Assembly: GCF_000146505.1 (NCBI RefSeq) | Contig: NC_017448.1 | Location: 1,590,001 to 1,622,000, forward strand | From: Fibrobacter succinogenes subsp. succinogenes S85 | Lineage (GTDB): Bacteria > Fibrobacterota > Fibrobacteria > Fibrobacterales > Fibrobacteraceae | Length of the DNA: 32,000 bases | Direction: 5' to 3' | Shown: positions 13,899-24,299 of the stretch, piece after piece | How positions within the stretch are numbered: position 1 is the first letter of the stretch | Layout: every line of letters starts with the position of its first letter | Notes under the pieces: generated by a model | Database searches by the model: none | What the model saw: only the letters and a program-made list of their open reading frames with translations | Told to the model about the DNA's origin: nothing | Made by a program: the position numbers and the translations under genes

Positions 13899-14315
13899 AA
13901 TGTGTACTCCTTAAAATAATTGGTAGGGATAAACTATAAAAAATACGAACAAAAAACAACAGATAAAGTGTTGAAATTTGTATTCAGATATCAAGCAGAT
14001 TAATTTGGTCCCCAGTGGTGACACATTTCAACTAGCTATCCAACAACACCCACAAGAAGGTGGATGCGTCCCATCGCGGATGCACATACGGGCCATAAGG
14101 CCTATGCCGACTGTCACAGGGATTTTCGTAATCTCAGGCAAAATGCGCAGAAACAATTCTGCACATTTGCACACCAACAATATAAGTTATCAAAAGTTCT
14201 CTGTCAAGAGGTTCCAAGCCCCCAAAACTCAACTTCTTCGAAATTCGTCCCATAACTCGGAGCCATTGTATCTCAAGCATAAAGAATCTAAATTCTTCTA
14301 CAGGGAAAAAATAAC

Positions 14316-14618
14316 ATGTTCAATGCATCACTTTCATGGATCAAAAGCAAACAAGTCTTCCTGAAAATTCAGGCGGGCACGGGAGACAATTTGCAGCAAG
14401 AAGACATCCAAAAAGGATTTGTCGATTATTGTCTTTGGTCTACTTTCAAGCCGGAAAATATAGACATAGACGGGGAACTTGATATGGAAAGCATCGACAG
14501 CGGAATGGTCCTGTTCAGGGAAAACTGCACCCCCGGAGAGGCGCTGGAATCGAGCTGCCGGCAAGCCTTCGGCACCGACTTCGACAAGGACGATGTTATG
14601 GTACTGATGCTGAAATGA
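14316..14618 (+). CDS. hypothetical protein (100 aa)
   Basis: Only an ORF with protein-like acidic composition. No recognisable motif. Confidence 0.35.
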   Translation: MFNASLSWIKSKQVFLKIQAGTGDNLQQEDIQKGFVDYCLWSTFKPENIDIDGELDMESIDSGMVLFRENCTPGEALESSCRQAFGTDFDKDDVMVLMLK

Positions 14619-14655
14619 CACCTTTCCCGAATAAGGAAATAGAAATCCAAAAATG

Positions 14656-14973: not shown

Positions 14974-15152
14974 ATAAATTCCTTTTTATGGATAAACTGT
15001 TATCTTCTAATTGTCATAACCACGCCACGTAGTGCACAATATAAAAATATCCTCCCCCTCGCTTAGGAACTCTGCCCCTAAAACCTCGCTTGACCGCAGA
15101 CAACCATTAGAGTATTTTAAACAAAGTCAAACATTCTCCGGAGACCCGCCAA

Positions 15153-15614
15153 ATGCAAGGTAAACCGTCACACTACTTCGTCATCCGCTCGCCGTACGTC
15201 CAGCTAGTGCTTACCGGCGTAAAGACATTTGAATGGAGGACAAACGCAAAAATGTTTGCGAACAAGCGCCTCGCCGTCGCAGTCTCCAAATCTCGCGCCC
15301 ATGAAGACGACCTGCAAAACGACATCGCCAAGTGGGAAAAACTGTGGAGCAAATTCCTGAAGAAAGCGACCGCAAAAGACCGCGAAACCGCGCTCGCAAA
15401 ACTCAAGAGAAACCGCGCCAAGGCCGAAAAGCTGTTCGACAAGACAAACGGATGCGGCATGATTATCGGCGAAATCGTGACGGGCGACGTCGCCACCTAC
15501 GAAGGACTCCTGGGCGTTCCCGTACTGGAATTCAAACTCTGGCCGGAATCCGAATGGATGGAATCTCCCGGCGGCCTCGGCGTACGACACATGCCAGAGA
15601 GGACAGGGGAATAA
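15153..15614 (+). CDS. ASCH (PUA-like) domain protein with a charged helical insertion
   Basis: IRSPYVQLVLTGVKTFEWRTN fits the ASCH opening (xxGxKTxExR). An insert of about 55 aa rich in Lys/Glu/Ala (HEDDLQNDIAKWEKLW...RAKAEKLFDK) comes before the distal beta strands (GMIIGEIVTGDV). Confidence 0.55.
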   Translation: MQGKPSHYFVIRSPYVQLVLTGVKTFEWRTNAKMFANKRLAVAVSKSRAHEDDLQNDIAKWEKLWSKFLKKATAKDRETALAKLKRNRAKAEKLFDKTNGCGMIIGEIVTGDVATYEGLLGVPVLEFKLWPESEWMESPGGLGVRHMPERTGE

Positions 15615-15786
15615 AACTCTTTCCTATTTCGGCAAATGTGAGTTATCTCAAAGATGATCAAATCGTTTGTATAGCCATTGGTTTACATCCTAATTGAAAC
15701 CCAAGACGAAAATGGCGCAGCCGGAGTTTTACTTGTACTCTTTAAAGAGATGTTTTAGCTTAATTATTATAATTCTAGAAATGTTC

Positions 15787-15823: not shown

Positions 15824-17080
15824 ATGAGCAGTAAGATAAATTTAGTAGAAGACCAAATAAGAAAGTCGGACAAGATTCCTAAGATTGTCGCACTAAGCTT
15901 TTTTTCTGGCGCCATGGGACTTGACATAGGCTTATCGAAAGCAGGTATAAAGGTTTTGCTTGCATCCGAAATAGAACCAAATGCAAGACGAACAATTCTA
16001 ACGAATGAGCCGAACATTGGTCTCATAGGTGATATAAGCGATTATTCTGCCGAAGACATCAGAAAATACGCTAATTTACCTAAGAATCAAGAAATTGATG
16101 TAATGGTAGGAGGCCCTCCATGCCAAGCGTTTTCCACCGCAGGTAAGAGAGAGAGTTTTTCCGATGCACGCGGAAACGTGTTCCTCACCTACATTGACCG
16201 TATCCTTGAATTACGCCCTAAGTACGCAGTAATTGAAAATGTTCGAGGCCTCTTATCCGCCGCTTACAACCCGCCTAAAAAAGAAAGTTTCGGATTCGCA
16301 ATGCCAACTCCTAAAAATGAAAAGGGGGGAGCATTAGCTTATATCATAAAAAAATTGGAAGATGGTGGATATGGGGTTTCATTCAATTTATACAATGCTG
16401 CAAATTATGGAGCACCCCAAAAAAGAGAACGAATAGTCATTATTTGTTCGCGAGACGGTTCAAAAGCGCCGTATTTGACCCCGACTCATTCGGAAACGGG
16501 CTTGTTCAATTTACCCAAATGGCGAACCGTTTCCGAAGTGTTGAACGACCTAGATGAAAATGTCCAGGAATATTCAAAATTCTCCGAAAAAAGACTAAAG
16601 TTCTTCAGAATGCTGAAGGCCGGCCAGTATTGGAAAGACCTCCCCGAAGAAGCCCAAAAAGAAGCAATGGGTTCAAAACTGCAACTTGGCGGTGGAAAGA
16701 CAGGGTTCTTTAGAAGATTGGCTTGGGATTTGCCTTCTCCTACGTTGGTAACAGACCCGACAATGCCGGCTACAGATTTATGCCATCCTGATAAGGATCG
16801 TCCTTTGAGTGTTCAAGAGTACAAACGAATTCAAGAATTTCCTGACGATTGGAAGCTTTGTGGTGACATCAAAGCCAAATACAAACAGGTTGGAAATGCC
16901 GTGCCAGTTAGCTTAGGCATGGCAATAGGTAAGCACATTGTGAAATTGCTTGAAGGAAAAAAAGTCAAACAAATTGAAGGATTCCCGTATTCTCGCTATG
17001 TAAACACGGATGTAGACACATTCAAAAAACTGGTAATGTCTAAGAAAGAAATAGTAGGTCAGTTAGAATTGAATTTCTGA
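15824..17080 (+). CDS. DNA (cytosine-5)-methyltransferase
   Basis: All diagnostic motifs are present: I FFSGAMGLDIG, IV GGPPCQAFS, VI ENVRGL, VIII QKRERIVII, X GNAVPVSL. Confidence 0.95.
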   Translation: MSSKINLVEDQIRKSDKIPKIVALSFFSGAMGLDIGLSKAGIKVLLASEIEPNARRTILTNEPNIGLIGDISDYSAEDIRKYANLPKNQEIDVMVGGPPCQAFSTAGKRESFSDARGNVFLTYIDRILELRPKYAVIENVRGLLSAAYNPPKKESFGFAMPTPKNEKGGALAYIIKKLEDGGYGVSFNLYNAANYGAPQKRERIVIICSRDGSKAPYLTPTHSETGLFNLPKWRTVSEVLNDLDENVQEYSKFSEKRLKFFRMLKAGQYWKDLPEEAQKEAMGSKLQLGGGKTGFFRRLAWDLPSPTLVTDPTMPATDLCHPDKDRPLSVQEYKRIQEFPDDWKLCGDIKAKYKQVGNAVPVSLGMAIGKHIVKLLEGKKVKQIEGFPYSRYVNTDVDTFKKLVMSKKEIVGQLELNF

Positions 17081-17151
17081 TTATTACCATAAAGAGTCAT
17101 AGTAATCGTCCATAGAATTGTAGTGAGATTTGAAATCGCGAACCAAGTCGT

Positions 17152-18021
17152 TTATTTTTTCTCTATTTCTTTTACTATGCCTGAATCATGCAAAACAGCA
17201 TCTGCTGCATTGCGTATGTTTTTTGAGAGTGTTGAATGATATTGTCCTTTGCCAGATATGTGCTCCCACAATTCTCTTCCCACAAAAGTTTTTTTCTTCC
17301 AATCTTTGACATAAGTTTCTAGCAATTTAGAAGTGACGGTCGCTGCGTTTTTCTTGCCGTAGGTAATGCCAATATACGCTTTATTGCCTTTTTTTTCAAC
17401 GCTGGATAGTTCTTCATCATAATGCTTAATCTGCCCCTTATCTAAATCGTTGAATCCACTTTTTATTTCAAAGAATGTCTTTTCTCCATCTTTATCTATC
17501 ACTAAATCGAACTTAGTTTTTTTGCCTTCGTTATAGTTCTTGCCATCATATATATGTTCATTTGAATATAAAAGCAGGTCTTGGACAAGAAAGCCCATGG
17601 ATGTCACGATACTTCTGGAAACAGCTTGATATGTATAAAATTTGATAAAATCTTTTGGATTGTCAAATTTCAATGCATAACATAATAAGGGATTTGTATT
17701 TAGATCATTTATTGTAATTTCTTTAATCTTTTCCAGCTGTTTTGCTATAAATTTTTTTGTAAAAAGCTGTATAAAGTTTTCTTCTATTGTGCAATCATTA
17801 TTTATTTCTTTTTGCAGTTCTTCTATAGCTTTTATTTCCTTTTGTGTTAATTTTTTCCCGTTTGGGAGGGGGCTAATTTCGTTCACAGACGCTTGTTTAA
17901 ATTTTTCTAGCGAAGAATATTGGGACTTGATTATTTCCAGTTTTTCTTTGAAAGAACGACTCGAACTCGTCATATGAATTAGACATCCTTTTTTTATGAA
18001 TTCAGATACAGAGGCCGCCAT
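17152..18021 (-). CDS. PD-(D/E)xK nuclease-like protein, candidate restriction endonuclease (second of two)
   Basis: FDLVIDKDGEKTFFEIKSG gives a D...E-x-K catalytic signature. It is AT-rich like its neighbours and convergent with the methyltransferase. An alternative start lies at 17973 (MTSSSR). Confidence 0.55.
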   Translation of the reverse strand: MAASVSEFIKKGCLIHMTSSSRSFKEKLEIIKSQYSSLEKFKQASVNEISPLPNGKKLTQKEIKAIEELQKEINNDCTIEENFIQLFTKKFIAKQLEKIKEITINDLNTNPLLCYALKFDNPKDFIKFYTYQAVSRSIVTSMGFLVQDLLLYSNEHIYDGKNYNEGKKTKFDLVIDKDGEKTFFEIKSGFNDLDKGQIKHYDEELSSVEKKGNKAYIGITYGKKNAATVTSKLLETYVKDWKKKTFVGRELWEHISGKGQYHSTLSKNIRNAADAVLHDSGIVKEIEKK

Positions 18022-18106
18022 TTTTCTTTAATCTACGATGCAAAAAAATGTTTTTTTATTTAACGTATCAAGACACGCGTTTCCTATAATCAATTGTAAA
18101 AGGGAT

Positions 18107-18811
18107 TTATGTTCTATAATTAAGTATTTTCTGGATAGCTTCGCATTCAGCTAAATCCACGTATAAACACTTTGGATTCATTATAACAACAGCTCGTGCA
18201 AACTGAATAAATTCTTCCTCACTGAGTTTGTCACTTGCTGGTATGCCAAGCATTGTATTGAGAGCCCCCCATTCTGTTTGCCCCGTCCTTGAGCTAAGAC
18301 GATACCATTTTTGAATGGTTGTGCCTGCTCGTATTTTATCGCTGGAGCTGTTTTCTGTATTGTCTTTGTTTTTAATCTGAATCAGGTCGCCGTTTTTATT
18401 GCACAAGTCAACAGCTTTGATGCAGCTGCCCCAGCAAGTGGCCCATCCATATTTTAGTACTTTCGTATGGATATATTCCTCGAGAATCAAACCGATTATA
18501 TTTTCGGCTCCCATTGAAAGCCTGTGGCCAAAACGAATAAGAGCAATGTCATTAGGGGTAAAAGATTTTATTCGTGCTCCAATAAGATTGTCTATCAGTT
18601 TATCCGGTACCGTAGTCATTTTTCCAGATATTCGTTTTGATGGCCTATGGTTGTAGGCATTGAAGAATTTGTTTATGAACGATTCAACATCTGCTTGACT
18701 TGCGTTTGAATTTTGTTGTAACCAAACAGGAGTTACAATTTTGAATCCGGATTCTTCCGTTTCCTCTGAATAATATTGATTTGCAAGTTCTATTATTTCT
18801 GATGTGTTCAT
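18107..18811 (-). CDS. candidate type II restriction endonuclease, translationally coupled to the controller protein
   Basis: Its start overlaps the C-gene stop as ATGA (18808-18811). AVDLCNKNGDLIQIKNK is a PD-(D/E)xK-like D...x-I-K segment. Size (234 aa) is typical of a type IIP REase. Confidence 0.55.
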   Translation of the reverse strand: MNTSEIIELANQYYSEETEESGFKIVTPVWLQQNSNASQADVESFINKFFNAYNHRPSKRISGKMTTVPDKLIDNLIGARIKSFTPNDIALIRFGHRLSMGAENIIGLILEEYIHTKVLKYGWATCWGSCIKAVDLCNKNGDLIQIKNKDNTENSSSDKIRAGTTIQKWYRLSSRTGQTEWGALNTMLGIPASDKLSEEEFIQFARAVVIMNPKCLYVDLAECEAIQKILNYRT

Positions 18812-19044
18812 TTTTTTATCTCTCCTACATTAGTAACATTATACAGATCCATTATGTTTATGTTGAGATATTGAATTAGGACTATCGCCTTACGAAAGGA
18901 GATGTTTCTTTCTCCTCTCTCGATCATTCCTATATAGTTTTTATGCATTTCAACAGCATTTCCAAGCTGTTCCTGACTTATGCATTTCTTTTCTCTAGCT
19001 TTCTTAACTAGTAAGCCAAAATTTTTTAGGAAGGGATCGTTCAT
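18808..19044 (-). CDS. XRE-family HTH controller (C) protein of the R-M system
   Basis: 78 aa from ATG 19044. ISQEQLGNAVEMHKNYIGMIERGERNISFRKAIVLIQYL is a lambda-repressor-like HTH. Its position and stop/start overlap with the nuclease gene are typical of C proteins. The track ORF to 19071 starts at TTG. Confidence 0.75.
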   Translation of the reverse strand: MNDPFLKNFGLLVKKAREKKCISQEQLGNAVEMHKNYIGMIERGERNISFRKAIVLIQYLNINIMDLYNVTNVGEIKK

Positions 19045-19051
19045 TTTTTCA

Positions 19052-19079
19052 ATTATATAAATGAAATTCAAAAGAGCAA
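19052..19079 (-). promoter_or_regulatory. sigma70-like promoter of the C-R operon, apparently leaderless
   Basis: On the minus strand: TTGCTC (19079-74), 16-nt spacer, TATAAT (19057-52), then 7 nt (TGAAAAA) before ATG 19044. Confidence 0.4.
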
Positions 19080-19182
19080 CACACTATCCGTTGTTTTTTG
19101 CGTTTTTTGGTATTTTTGTTGCCTAATAGTGCTGTTTTGAGTTATGTTTAGATAGAAGGTTAATAAACAATAGGATCAAATT

Positions 19183-19497
19183 ATGGATTTCAGCACTTTT
19201 GAACGGCTTTACATTCCTTATTGCGAAACAACAAATGTGAGTAGTGGTAAGGCAAGATCTTATTATCTTGCAATTAAATATTTGGCAGAATATCTAAACT
19301 TGCCGAATCTTGGTTACGGGAATGCTTACAAGATTCTCGAAAAAGAAAATGACCTTAGCGAAAGGAATAGCATTTTTTACAGACAGCTACTTCGCCAATG
19401 GGATGATGATGGTCATAGCTCCTATTTAAAAAATGGATTCGTTCAAGCGGCCATCTCTTATTTTAGGAAATTTGCTGCAGATAACAATTTGCTGTAG
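19183..19497 (+). CDS. hypothetical protein (104 aa)
   Basis: ORF with plausible composition. AT-rich island gene. No motif recognised. Confidence 0.45.
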   Translation: MDFSTFERLYIPYCETTNVSSGKARSYYLAIKYLAEYLNLPNLGYGNAYKILEKENDLSERNSIFYRQLLRQWDDDGHSSYLKNGFVQAAISYFRKFAADNNLL

Positions 19498-19536
19498 CAG
19501 ATACCCAGTCTCTATCACTATTTTATAGAACAATAA

Positions 19537-19566
19537 CCCCTATGATTTTTAGCATAGGGGTTATTT
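19537..19566. terminator. bidirectional intrinsic terminator between convergent genes
   Basis: CCCCTATG-ATTTTTAG-CATAGGGG, a perfect 8-bp stem, flanked by AATAA on the left and TTATTT on the right. Confidence 0.7.
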
Positions 19567-19575
19567 AGATTTATC

Positions 19576-20520
19576 TCAAAAAATCTTCCCTTCTATTGAG
19601 CCGGCCCCTGTTGTTTTGCATAATATGATCTTATTCCTGTTTTGGGGCCATTTTTGTATTAAGTGATTGCGATCTAGCCTCTTTTCATCAATAAAAAGAT
19701 TCACACTGTTTTCAAAAGTTAACTCATTATTTTTACGTTGGATGACTGTTTTTTCGTCGATTCTGTCACGCTCATCGTGCAGTTCGAAATTTATTGATGT
19801 AAATCCAATTTGCCAGAAAGCCATATCCAACAATTTCATCTGCGTATATTCTAGGTTCCCTTTTTGGAGTGTTACCCTATAACTTTCTAATTGATCAAAA
19901 TTATTTTTATAAAATTCTATAAGATTGTTCAAGGATGTTTTGTTGTATGTTTTCGTCGTTACTTGTTCATATGCGACACCTTTGGCAAAATACTGATCAT
20001 AGGCGGGAACACATCCCAGAGTTCCTAAAAGGACTTTTGTTATCAGGATTGTCGACAGATCAGATTCTACTTCTTCCTTGTACAATAAATCGGAAACACT
20101 TTTTCGAACATCGGAGTAGTATTCAGTGATTTTTTCTGATAAATCCCATAATGCCAGGTTCAGTTCTGAATTGATAAGTTCTTTACATCCTGCTCCTTGA
20201 AGACGCTTGTCCGAGTTCAAAATCATTTCAACAACTTTGCGATGGATTTTGTTATCTTGTTGCAGGAGGAAGGAGGATCCGCGATACATTCCCCAGCTAG
20301 CAAGATAAAAAGCCAGATGAAGGCAAAGGCGGTCTTTGTCACTCTCTGTTATGGACTTTTTATTTCGAACTTCACAAAAAGCCGAGTAGCAGTGTTCCCA
20401 AGAAAGATATCGACTATTTTCTTTTTTGCAGAATCGCCAATACTCTTCCGTGTTTTTTATGAGTTTTTCTATAAGGTACTGTTTTTTCGGTTTTGTATTT
20501 GCTGTGGGACATGTTTTCAT
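19576..20520 (-). CDS. hypothetical protein (314 aa), distal gene of an uncharacterised operon
   Basis: Long AT-rich ORF 7 nt downstream of the preceding gene. It has the conserved-looking block LCLHLAFYLASWGMYRGSSFLL. No family assigned. Confidence 0.6.
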   Translation of the reverse strand: MKTCPTANTKPKKQYLIEKLIKNTEEYWRFCKKENSRYLSWEHCYSAFCEVRNKKSITESDKDRLCLHLAFYLASWGMYRGSSFLLQQDNKIHRKVVEMILNSDKRLQGAGCKELINSELNLALWDLSEKITEYYSDVRKSVSDLLYKEEVESDLSTILITKVLLGTLGCVPAYDQYFAKGVAYEQVTTKTYNKTSLNNLIEFYKNNFDQLESYRVTLQKGNLEYTQMKLLDMAFWQIGFTSINFELHDERDRIDEKTVIQRKNNELTFENSVNLFIDEKRLDRNHLIQKWPQNRNKIILCKTTGAGSIEGKIF

Positions 20521-20527
20521 ATTTGGG

Positions 20528-21172
20528 TTATATGTTATGTTCAGCCAAGTATTGCAATAATGAGTTCATGTTGCGATCATACCAGTCATTAGTAACAAAG
20601 TAATGTTCATTTCTGATAGAAATATCATCGGCATAATATCTGGATCTGCCATGATTATCATTACGCCCAGCATCAGTTAGCTTTAACACTGGGTAGCGAA
20701 GATTTCCAAATGTACGACGGCAGTATGCAGCGTCTTGTAAATTGGATACCTCTTCGTTAGATAAATTGCCGCTTTTCAAAAGATCATACAGTCTGGTTTT
20801 AACAATAAATCCAGGTCTTAATTCAGCCAAATTCTCATTTACTTGAGCTTGCGCTGGAGCGAGGTTATTGAACCTTCGAATCCTATTTTGTCTTCCTGGA
20901 TTAATCTCTGTCATCTTCCAAAGTTTTACAGCTCGAATAAACAATTCGCTTTCGTCAGCTATATTGTCGGTCAAATTGCAAAGTGGAATCAATATGCTTG
21001 ATTTAAATTCTTCATTTGCGATAATCTTTAGATCAACTTCGCAATTATTTTCGGAAAAAAAGTCTCTTAGATTATTGATATTTGCATTTAATTGGGTTAA
21101 AGTAGTATCTCCAATTCTAGGCGAAATAAATGTTAGTTCTATGGCACTATTTGGGAAAAAGGATTTCGTCAT
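20528..21172 (-). CDS. hypothetical protein; the reading frame stays open upstream to 21280 with no canonical start, so it is probably the C-terminal part of a split gene
   Basis: 214 aa from the first ATG. The same frame reads RRSYKIFAYESAFHENGLNYQDTQKKVIHKFFRNYL upstream of that ATG. Confidence 0.55.
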   Translation of the reverse strand: MTKSFFPNSAIELTFISPRIGDTTLTQLNANINNLRDFFSENNCEVDLKIIANEEFKSSILIPLCNLTDNIADESELFIRAVKLWKMTEINPGRQNRIRRFNNLAPAQAQVNENLAELRPGFIVKTRLYDLLKSGNLSNEEVSNLQDAAYCRRTFGNLRYPVLKLTDAGRNDNHGRSRYYADDISIRNEHYFVTNDWYDRNMNSLLQYLAEHNI

Positions 21173-21225
21173 TAAATAGTTTCTGAAAAATTTATGAATT
21201 ACTTTTTTTTGAGTGTCTTGATAAT

Positions 21226-21534
21226 TTAAACCGTTTTCATGAAAAGCTGATTCATAGGCAAAAATTTTGTACGACCTCCTTCAAACAAAAGACCTAATAA
21301 ATCACATTCGGTGGATTCCAATACGGTTGAAAAGGATTGTGGTCGATTGCCTGATGTAAAACGAAAAACAGAAAAACGTTCATCATCTTGAAAACGATTA
21401 TATAGAGTTTCTAGCTCTGATTCATTATATTGCTGCCAGAATCTAGACACCTTGAAGTTAGTTTGAACAATCTGACAGCCTTTACAATGTCTCAGCCAGG
21501 AATAAAGCATGCTTTCTGCTATTTCTATTTTCAT
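21226..21534 (-). CDS. hypothetical protein (102 aa), probably the N-terminal part of the split gene
   Basis: MKIEIAESMLYSWLRHCKGCQIVQTNFK...ESTECDLLGLLFEGG, after which the frame ends. It overlaps the open upstream extension of the next ORF by about 50 nt. Confidence 0.55.
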   Translation of the reverse strand: MKIEIAESMLYSWLRHCKGCQIVQTNFKVSRFWQQYNESELETLYNRFQDDERFSVFRFTSGNRPQSFSTVLESTECDLLGLLFEGGRTKFLPMNQLFMKTV

Positions 21535-21759
21535 TCTGGATTCCTTTTCAGTTAAACACCTGCAAATTAAAATAAATTATTTCCATACAAAAGTCCAAAG
21601 ATTTTTTTGCGTTAGGGATAGTGACCCCTTGGGGACAAGACTCGCATAGCGAGGCTTGGTTCTAGGAGGCGAGCGGCAAGCGAAAGCGTAGGCGATTGCC
21701 CCTAGAATATAGCCCGACCCGGCCCTTCGGCAAGCTCAGGGACCTGGGCCGGGGAACGC

Positions 21760-21801
21760 CTTGTAAAATTTTCTTGCTTCCATGGCGCAAGCGCCAAATG
21801 C
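21760..21801 (+). repeat. left 42-nt boundary repeat of the cassette array (18-nt core plus palindrome)
   Basis: CTTGTAAAATTTTCTTGCTTCCATGGCGCAAGCGCCAAATGC is 39/42 identical to 26031-26072. It contains the perfect palindrome TGGCGCAAGCGCCA. Confidence 0.85.
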
Positions 21802-21814
21802 TAGGCTCAGTCAT

Positions 21815-21836
21815 AAAAATAAGCAAGCTTATTTTT
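21815..21836. repeat. perfect 10-bp inverted repeat AAAAATAAGC-AA-GCTTATTTTT
   Basis: Read directly from the sequence. It lies in the 59-nt unique spacer between the left boundary repeat and the first leader module, and could act as a bidirectional terminator. Confidence 0.5.
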
Positions 21837-21896
21837 GCGACATTCGCCTTACGCATTTGTGCCAACATTTTCGATATTAGGTACATTAATGCAGCA

Positions 21897-21934
21897 CGTG
21901 ATTCTCTGTCAAATGGAGAATCGCGTCTTTTTTT
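21897..21934 (+). terminator. intrinsic-terminator-like hairpin inside leader copy A
   Basis: CGTGATTCTC-TGTCAAATG-GAGAATCGCG (10-bp stem including one G-U) followed by TCTTTTTTT. Confidence 0.6.
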
Positions 21935-23926: not shown

Positions 23927-23945
23927 TTACAAAAGCGAGGTAAAA

Positions 23946-24299
23946 ATGAACTATACATTTACAGAAAAAGAAGTTGAAATGATGTACAACTGGGGAATGT
24001 ACGCTGATGGGGAAAGCGGCTTCAATGAAGAAGAAAAAAAGTTGTACGATAAATTGGAGCGAATATTTACGCCATTACAAAAAGAAAAAAATAATGCGCA
24101 AAAGGTTGTAGAATTTTTCAAAGAAATTAGCAATACATACGAGAACGTAAGTTATTACTGGAGTACTGGGACCTGTATCAAATTTATTGACTATGATAAA
24201 ACACTTTGCTTTGACACTAAAAAAACTAAATACACAGATGTGGTGCTCGAGGTGTCGAAGGTTATAAACAAATTAAAGTTGAAAAAGCGAGAAGATTAA
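23946..24299 (+). CDS. hypothetical protein (117 aa)
   Basis: ATG 23946 is preceded by GAGGTAAAA, 19 nt after the ORF6N-family stop. No motif recognised. Confidence 0.5.
   Translation: MNYTFTEKEVEMMYNWGMYADGESGFNEEEKKLYDKLERIFTPLQKEKNNAQKVVEFFKEISNTYENVSYYWSTGTCIKFIDYDKTLCFDTKKTKYTDVVLEVSKVINKLKLKKRED

Follow-up and report, generated by a model that had tools for sequence, protein, structure and literature searches.

Locus structure and the frameshift in gene A

The stretch of DNA analysed here (the window) comprises 32,000 nucleotides (nt) of Fibrobacter succinogenes subsp. succinogenes S85, and exact look-ups assigned it to the chromosome of this strain (records CP001792 and CP002158). The subject of this study is a group of three consecutive minus-strand open reading frames (ORFs), all annotated as hypothetical: Fisuc_0937 (21226-21534), encoding 102 amino acids (aa), Fisuc_0936/FSU_1384 (20528-21172), encoding 214 aa, and the intact Fisuc_0935 (19576-20520), encoding 314 aa and lying 7 nt from the preceding one. 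The first-pass annotation, made from the letters of the DNA, described these ORFs, the quoted peptides and the 7-nt gap correctly, and regarded the group as an operon encoding a two- or three-gene defence or accessory system. According to our analysis, the first two ORFs are parts of a single gene of 335 aa, split by a frameshift; this repaired gene (20528..21534, minus strand), which is a pseudogene in S85, is hereinafter referred to as A, and the 314-aa gene as B. Both are real genes, as follows from their many homologues and from a ratio of non-synonymous to synonymous substitution rates (dN/dS) of about 0.1 in comparisons with sufficiently distant relatives; however, they turned out to be neighbours in very few of the loci surveyed.

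The GC content is 0.32-0.38 over positions 17000-21500 versus 0.45-0.56 in the flanks, so that A and B are indeed as AT-rich as the adjacent restriction-modification (R-M) genes. Between B and a convergent 104-aa ORF of no known family (Fisuc_0934, 19183..19497, plus strand) there is a hairpin with a perfect stem of 13 bp (19532-19565), a probable terminator. Its folding energy (-20.4 kcal/mol, z = -5.0 versus shuffled sequences) agrees with the strong bidirectional terminator initially proposed at this site, but owing to its weak T-tract it was not called by the consensus terminator scan. The 104-aa ORF has only three cluster members. As judged by tblastn, it is located downstream of B in the loci L268 and L269 and, with weaker similarity, in L272 and L273 (loci are designated here by L numbers and homologous proteins by P numbers), i.e., it travels with B solely in the closest relatives.

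The frame of the 214-aa ORF is open upstream of its ATG, where it reads IFAYESAFHENGLNY and IFAYESAFHENGLNYQDTQKKVIHKFFRNYLMTKSFF, and overlaps the end of the 102-aa ORF. The frameshift site (21262..21270, minus strand) is A4T5 in S85 versus A5T5 in the intact allele: in the alignment to the metagenomic locus L268, whose identity to S85 is 95.6% over 2.5 kb and 99.0% within gene A, one A is deleted from the A5 run at about 21265, where the gap falls. In L268 the gene is uninterrupted and encodes 335 aa, with ACAAAAATTTTT in place of the ACAAAATTTTT of S85, and two intact homologues of 335 aa, P0001 and P0248, share 99% identity with the repaired A. The earlier assumption that the first gene is frameshifted and needs repair was, consequently, right. 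The frameshift is real and not an assembly error, since the 214-aa fragment is present in both independent S85 genome records (ACX74543, ADL26654) and the two fragments of A recur on 53 and 27 assembled contigs. Judging by these alignments, gene A should be considered dead in S85 after the loss of a single A. Between S85 and L268 the gene has accumulated two synonymous and seven non-synonymous changes (dN/dS about 0.9), whereas comparison with the 73%-identical copy in L231 gives a dN/dS of 0.12; few substitutions as these are, they fit a recent loss of constraint in S85. Programmed frameshifting was also considered and is unlikely: ACAAAATTTTTG, read in the zero frame, is not a heptamer of the X XXY YYZ type, and alleles with an intact A5 run occur.

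Inactivation of A is not confined to S85. The homologues in L256, L257, L259, L260 and L261-L267 carry frameshifts, are fragments or break off after the N-terminal domain, and pseudogenisation is thus common in this family. There are also short forms of A, 235 aa long, which end 15 nt from an R-M cassette of the LlaJI type. Strains close to S85 carry the opposite homopolymer lesion. L268 and L269 have an intact gene A, and in their B an A6 run near codon 12 is lengthened by one A (A6 to A7), which puts the annotated start and the first dozen codons out of frame with the rest; a second indel is located near the stop of B. In S85 it is A that is affected (A5 to A4). The two lesions correspond to window positions 21265 and 20488 and to positions 1920 and 2698 of L268. 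This could be either chance decay or a slippage-based switch.

Protein families of A and B

Neither the three ORFs nor the repaired A matched any family in Pfam, NCBIfam, PHROGs or PADLOC (PADLOC-DB v2.0.0, 5,027 models, threshold E <= 0.1), and the earlier statement that none of the ORFs can be assigned to a family was thus correct. The PADLOC check advised at that stage, accordingly, linked neither the fragments of A nor B to any system model. The members of the A alignment, all scanned against the family libraries at E <= 1, gave no consistent weak match, and the same scan of the B alignment revealed only DUF7662 fusions on some homologues. Sequence-profile searches of the PDB, made for A, for its C-terminal domain, for B and for a wider B alignment, yielded nothing meaningful; a match to NucT (E = 0.015) was discounted, as it covers a short low-information stretch, and two different B profiles gave no match even at E <= 10. 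The genes are uncharacterised in the literature as well: no relevant paper was found on DUF7662, PF28206, these locus tags or R-M in S85. One B homologue, P0142, carries the precomputed Pfam entry PF28206, which is not in the Pfam copy that we searched, so that a newer Pfam release may already list the B family as a DUF.

The A family is large and widespread. A word-index search retrieved 332 homologues, and an exhaustive search with a hidden Markov model retrieved 2,618 representatives at 50% identity (E <= 1e-3), 604 of them at E <= 1e-30. Besides Fibrobacter, the hosts include Bacillota, Bacteroidota, Campylobacter, Betaproteobacteria, Planctomycetia, Akkermansia, Propionibacteriaceae, Spirochaetota, Cloacimonadota, Melainabacteria and Anaerolineae, the identity in these many lineages being typically 30-37%. 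The conserved module of the family is the N-terminal domain (aa 1 to ~215; 20891..21534, minus strand), whose beginning, MKIEMGESLxYSWLRHVKECQIVQTNWKxS, is extremely conserved. Invariant in the family alignment are E7, H16, K28, E76, D78, A97, H99, K115, D194, E197 and R201; at least 90% of the sequences share E100, and position 95 is either D or E.

The AlphaFold2 model of A has a mean predicted local distance difference test (pLDDT) score of 90 and consists, in its N-terminal part, of a helix (2-17), a strand (22-28), a hairpin (76-85/88-96), a second helix (108-126) and a further strand (131-138). This alpha-beta-beta-beta-alpha-beta order is that of the restriction-endonuclease-like core, and the acidic residues take their canonical positions, D78 opening the first strand of the hairpin and D/E95 closing the second. 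Among the weak Foldseek matches there are numerous nucleases of the PD-(D/E)xK fold: N.BspD6I (E = 0.055), MunI, Card1 (probability 0.75), Mus81, XPF, PspGI, MspJI and BsmI, all the nuclease matches being below significance, with template-modelling (TM) scores of at most 0.25 on the query. A PD-(D/E)xK fold had been suspected in the product of the first ORF from a short acidic motif. The predicted topology speaks in favour of this guess, but the canonical motif D...(D/E)xK is not found: the lysine site is occupied by A97, followed by the invariant H99 and the nearly invariant E100. The acidic/histidine centre predicted from the conserved residues (E7, E76, D78, D/E95, H99, E100) is, consequently, unusual, and K28 or K115 might replace the missing catalytic lysine. 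Considering the model, a PD-(D/E)xK-like nuclease fold of the N-terminal domain of A is likely but unproven.

A linker predicted to be disordered (215-231) joins this module to a C-terminal domain of helices and a beta-hairpin (aa 232-335; 20531..20842, minus strand) with the motif RYY..I.I....Y....W. This domain appears to be swappable across the family. At least 17 of the best 150 A representatives, although 277-493 aa in length, are matched by the profile only at positions 1 to ~225-255, and their alternative C-termini belong to several, at least four, unrelated sequence types. One of these is characterised by NHKI..Y...MKTD.G.SHGKVF (P0471, P0513, P0515), and further types are represented by P0489/P0490, P0493 and P0510; P0373 and P0513 carry two C-terminal domains in tandem. 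A few of the alternative tails resemble out-of-frame translation and not genuine domains. Profile searches found no PDB relatives of either the S85-type or the alternative C-terminal domains. Elsewhere, according to the profile search, the S85-type domain occurs only in short proteins of 52-185 aa without any Pfam domain, and it was not found joined to any other module. A constant catalytic-looking module combined with exchangeable small domains would correspond to the design of nucleases that are retargeted by swapping their recognition domains.

The B family is very large: at 90% identity it comprises at least 6,654 clusters (E <= 1e-3). Most of its members are 225-245 aa long and cover the first ~70% of the S85 protein, the core being of ~234 aa. 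In S85 this core corresponds to aa 1-242 (19795..20520, minus strand), and it is followed by a C-terminal extension (aa 243-314; 19579..19794, minus strand) specific to the Fibrobacter-type subgroup; by tblastn the extension was detected only in L002, L227-230, L268-273 and the S85 loci L271 and L274. Some homologues bear an N-terminal DUF7662 or a winged-helix-like domain. The model of B is all-helical through residue 241 (pLDDT 84, predicted TM score 0.83), apart from a low-confidence stretch, GSSF (82-85), which belongs to the best-conserved segment of the family, SWGMYRGSSFLLQ (SWGMYRGSS); the extension has a pLDDT of 57-79 over most of its length and of ~34 in the last few residues. In a deliberately diverse alignment R37, S40, W41, C44, S75, W76, G77, M78, R80, K162, G166, C170, P172 and A173 are invariant, and E42, D63, D89, H93, Y135, D175, K229 and D232 nearly so. 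This pattern of polar residues and cysteines looks like that of an enzyme or a ligand pocket.

Three more specific assignments of B were examined and rejected. B can hardly be a HEPN ribonuclease, as R37 is invariant but H43 of the R-x5-H motif varies (H, Y or N), and the best HEPN match in Foldseek has an E-value of 2.1. The resemblance to a helix-hairpin-helix DNA glycosylase is at chance level (MagIII, E = 0.95, TM score 0.22/0.29). A Cys3His metal site is contradicted by the loss of C112 in divergent members, though C44 and C170 are invariant.

With a dN/dS of 0.10-0.14 relative to the copies in L227, L002, L272 and L268, B is, by this measure, clearly a working gene under purifying selection. 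S85 and L268 are 98-99% identical in A and the flanks, but only 90.5% identical in B, where the differences cluster in the middle of the gene (19900-20340; synonymous rate 0.36, dN/dS 0.14). This patch looks like recombination from a divergent allele in the region that is the most variable across the family.

Linkage of A and B and their genomic surroundings

To judge whether A and B belong together, 80 genome and 20 viral loci around A and 146 metagenomic and viral loci around B were surveyed, with 88 and 115 of them, respectively, having enough flanking sequence. B was found downstream of A in 1 of the 88 loci, and A upstream of B in 1 of the 115. Among the 80 genome loci of A, the only one with B downstream is L002, which is the closest such locus; among the 146 loci of B, the only one with A upstream is L143; and B is absent from all 20 viral loci of A. 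In other words, the other gene is missing from more than 97% of the loci surveyed for each family. Clustering of the neighbours and Pfam scans did not reveal any other conserved partner for A or B.

The closest relatives show how the two genes part. A B gene 83% identical to that of S85 occurs without A, its neighbours being DUF2357/PDDEXK_7, two C5 methyltransferases and Mrr, and another, 84% identical, has an unrelated 459-aa protein upstream. Similarly, a 58%-identical A occurs without B, next to AlbA_2, UvrD and AIPR genes, and the 73%-identical A of L231/L232 is followed by an 88-aa stub of B that contains an in-frame stop and is truncated by an R-M cassette of the LlaJI type. It can be supposed from this stub and from L002 and L268/L269 that the pair is ancestral in this Fibrobacter lineage. 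Each gene, however, survives under selection without the other, and hence B is not an essential antitoxin of A, nor is A an essential partner of B; the antitoxin role of B was rejected for the same reason, A being intact where B is a stub. The operon-level two- or three-gene system proposed by the first-pass annotation is thus not borne out: conserved co-occurrence of the genes, whose absence had been named beforehand as grounds for refutation, was not found, nor does the pair show the conserved co-occurrence and adjacency of obligate two-gene or toxin-antitoxin systems, and in S85 A is, in addition, a pseudogene. Tight spacing of genes within a defence island is, in itself, no evidence that they form a system.

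The placement of these genes in a defence island was, on the contrary, well founded. The mosaic island of S85 occupies ~12.6 kb, from ~13.4 to 26.0 kb of the window, between a thioredoxin-like gene, just beyond a CBM6 glycoside hydrolase, as its left boundary and the gene of a Na+/H+ antiporter as its right one; no tRNA or Rfam elements bounding it were found. It consists, in order, of four small unknown ORFs, the R-M module, the 104-aa ORF, B, the pseudogene A, a 149-aa ORF with a helix-turn-helix gene, an ORF6N gene, a 117-aa unknown ORF and an AlbA_2/HATPase gene. Recognised defence genes adjoin A and B in many other genomes as well, in agreement with the earlier reading of the locus. Two genes on each side of B in 39 non-redundant loci include Gabija GajA/GajB, ZacA/ZacB, PDC-S01/S02/S11, components of Type I, IIG and IV R-M systems, AbiD and PD-T4-3; among the annotated loci, one B lies beside a Type I R-M system, and another beside an N6/N4 methyltransferase and ResIII helicase pair, a putative Type III system. 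In the 80 loci of A, the direct neighbours include UzuA (five loci), PDC-S01/S02/S05/M10B, Type IV restriction endonucleases (REases) and RmrA. In six loci (L017, L020, L033, L047, L052, L064), furthermore, A is followed after 7-28 nt by a gene of 281-285 aa, these genes forming one cluster.

As to mobile elements, A was found in none of 50,697 sequenced phages and in 2 of 72,556 plasmids, and B in one of these phages and in none of these plasmids. The sole phage is the Oscillospiraceae phage NatCom_27610, where B is at the recombinase-proximal end. There are also 66 IMG/VR contigs with B, which frequently lies no more than 1-2 kb from a contig end; integrases, recombinases and terminases are found in its vicinity, and in L238 it forms one gene block with the restriction-alleviation gene Lar and T5orf172.

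The R-M module of the island (15824..19071; Pfam and PADLOC) comprises a C5 methyltransferase on the plus strand and, on the minus strand, an EcoO109I/TdeIII-like REase (17152-18021), a SinI-like REase (18107-18811) and a C-protein gene, which overlaps the start of the SinI-like gene by 4 nt. There is, therefore, one methyltransferase for two REases. Enzymes of the EcoO109I/TdeIII and SinI types cut nested sites of the GGNCC type, and presumably the single C5 methyltransferase could protect against both of them.

Pieces of the island recur in shuffled order in related contigs. The small ORFs at 14315-14622, 15084-15638 and 23930-24294 (100, 153 and ~120 aa) have counterparts of 74-95% nucleotide identity in L233-L236, where they adjoin an A homologue in a different order and orientation; this reflects shuffling of cassettes at a hot spot. 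One flank of the island, with a LysR regulator and a Ser_hydrolase gene, is common to L227, L231 and L232, and the cargo behind it differs, being DUF2357/Mrr/B in one case and ORF6N/A/LlaJI-type R-M genes in the other, so that this flank seems to mark a conserved integration hot spot. In S85 the 366 nt upstream of A (21535-21900) are 98.6% identical to L268, and the homology ends at ~21900, which indicates a recombination junction there. The GC-richer segment within this region (~21640-21800) has no tRNA or Rfam match.

Interpretation and comparison with known systems

We suppose, with moderate confidence, that the locus represents two autonomous single-gene cassettes that lie side by side in a mosaic defence island and do not make up a dedicated operon-borne system. 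A would be a solitary nuclease directed to its target by the C-terminal domain, comparable to a Type IV or other stand-alone restriction enzyme or to an abortive-infection nuclease, and inactivated in S85 by the one-base loss. B would act alone as a chromosomal accessory protein, most likely a defensive one, acting on or sensing nucleic acid. For both genes the defensive role is the best-supported guess, based on the genomic context.

Several observations weigh against this interpretation. The Foldseek check of the models, which the first-pass annotation had advised, gave best E-values against the PDB of only 0.046 for A and 0.34 for B, with nothing at E < 0.01 for either, and with the invariant alanine at position 97 A lacks the canonical lysine of (D/E)xK. 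Defence neighbours were found in about one quarter to one third of the surveyed loci, and this enrichment is purely qualitative. Many loci of A, besides, are located between housekeeping genes, e.g., EamA and DAHP synthase in Campylobacter concisus. The remaining points concern the relation of the two genes to each other and to mobile elements. In L143, A is followed by B with a 2-nt gap, the proteins being 31% (A) and 45% (B) identical to those of the window, and this tight order, found both here and, with 7 nt, in the Fibrobacter clade, hints at occasional functional coupling. The 66 IMG/VR contigs with B, in turn, make it possible that B serves mobile elements.

The alternative that survives best, unlikely as it seems to us, is that neither gene is defensive: A could be a selfish homing-endonuclease-like or DNA-repair nuclease and B a regulatory or metabolic gene, both merely gathering in hot spots. 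The insertions of A as a single gene between housekeeping genes with 10-nt gaps in C. concisus, its frequent pseudogenisation and the lack of PADLOC models for either gene would agree with this. Recognised defence genes, however, recur as direct neighbours across unrelated phyla, B is within a few kb of R-M genes in all four contexts with called genes (S85, L227-229, L237, L238), and the apparently swappable C-terminal domains of A resemble those of modular restriction and defence nucleases.

We find it improbable that B, and possibly A, serves mobile elements as an anti-restriction (counter-defence) gene or as an accessory gene of the lysogeny module. The company of integrases, recombinases and terminases, the position in NatCom_27610 and the block with Lar and T5orf172 would agree with such a role; against it are the rarity of B in sequenced phages and plasmids and the fact that most B loci are chromosomal islands with Gabija, Zac, AbiD or R-M components. 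Accessory genes at prophage ends are often defence genes, and for this reason the location of B at a prophage end does not separate the defensive reading from the mobile-element one. An equally improbable explanation, a true two-gene system with A as the nuclease effector and B as its sensor, regulator or immunity partner under one promoter, for which the common strand, the 7-nt gap, the single downstream hairpin, the arrangement in the distant L143 and the probable ancestry of the pair in the Fibrobacter clade could be adduced, is already largely refuted by the co-occurrence counts, by purifying selection on B where A is absent or broken and by intact A where B is a stub or apparently frameshifted.

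The reading of A and B as autonomous cassettes allows some further suggestions. B could be the founder of a large family of one-protein immune or counter-immune enzymes with a fold not present in the PDB, and A a second new family, of solitary nucleases that swap their C-terminal domains; this we propose only tentatively and regard as rather doubtful. The two cassettes might also interact, e.g., by being redundant or incompatible, with slippage as the switch. Both families are large, are distributed across many phyla and occur beside recognised defence genes, and neither has been named, structured or phenotyped. If either of them is defensive, a compact single-gene defence system would be added to those described; A would then provide a natural example of retargeting by domain swap and B a new fold, and, should B indeed found such a family, the latter would be present in a cultured, genetically studied rumen bacterium. 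For S85 itself, a cellulolytic organism that is hard to engineer, the methyltransferase and the two REases of the island probably hinder transformation; gene A, as a pseudogene, contributes nothing to this barrier.

Among the known systems, B is comparable with abortive-infection (Abi) proteins of the AbiD/Abi_2 and HEPN types, which are likewise helical, stand-alone, ~230 aa long and present in prophages and defence islands. B has, however, neither sequence nor profile similarity to them; its R37-x5-H43 resembles the Rx4-6H motif of HEPN, but H43 varies, and no HEPN match in Foldseek is better than E = 2.

A differs from Type II systems in that a cognate methyltransferase does not adjoin it: only 1 of 149 immediate neighbours in the 80 loci is a DNA methylase. 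In its stand-alone nature, with no cognate methyltransferase and no conserved partner in 100 loci, it is close to solitary, or Type IV, REases (Mrr, McrA, MspJI-type), and, like these, it seems to combine a nuclease-like module with a separate one, resides in defence islands and is often pseudogenised; MspJI is also among its weak Foldseek matches. Unlike the Type IV REases, A matches no Type IV model of Pfam or PADLOC, including mREase_IV, has no recognisable domain for reading modified bases, and has its putative nuclease domain at the N-terminus, with the motif D...(D/E)xA instead of (D/E)xK and with a novel C-terminal domain. With the nuclease domains of Card1/Can2, MunI, PspGI and N.BspD6I it shares the predicted order of secondary-structure elements and the acidic residues with which beta2 begins and beta3 ends, and these enzymes are its best, though weak, structural matches; unlike Card1/Can2, it has no CARF domain, and the catalytic lysine is missing.

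Finally, although neither A nor B matches any PADLOC model, both are similar in their mode of occurrence to the PDC-S series of PADLOC and to UzuA of the Uzume system: they are orphan one-gene cassettes, distributed patchily across phyla and located beside R-M or other systems, and PDC-S01, PDC-S02, PDC-S05, PDC-S11 and UzuA directly adjoin A or B homologues.

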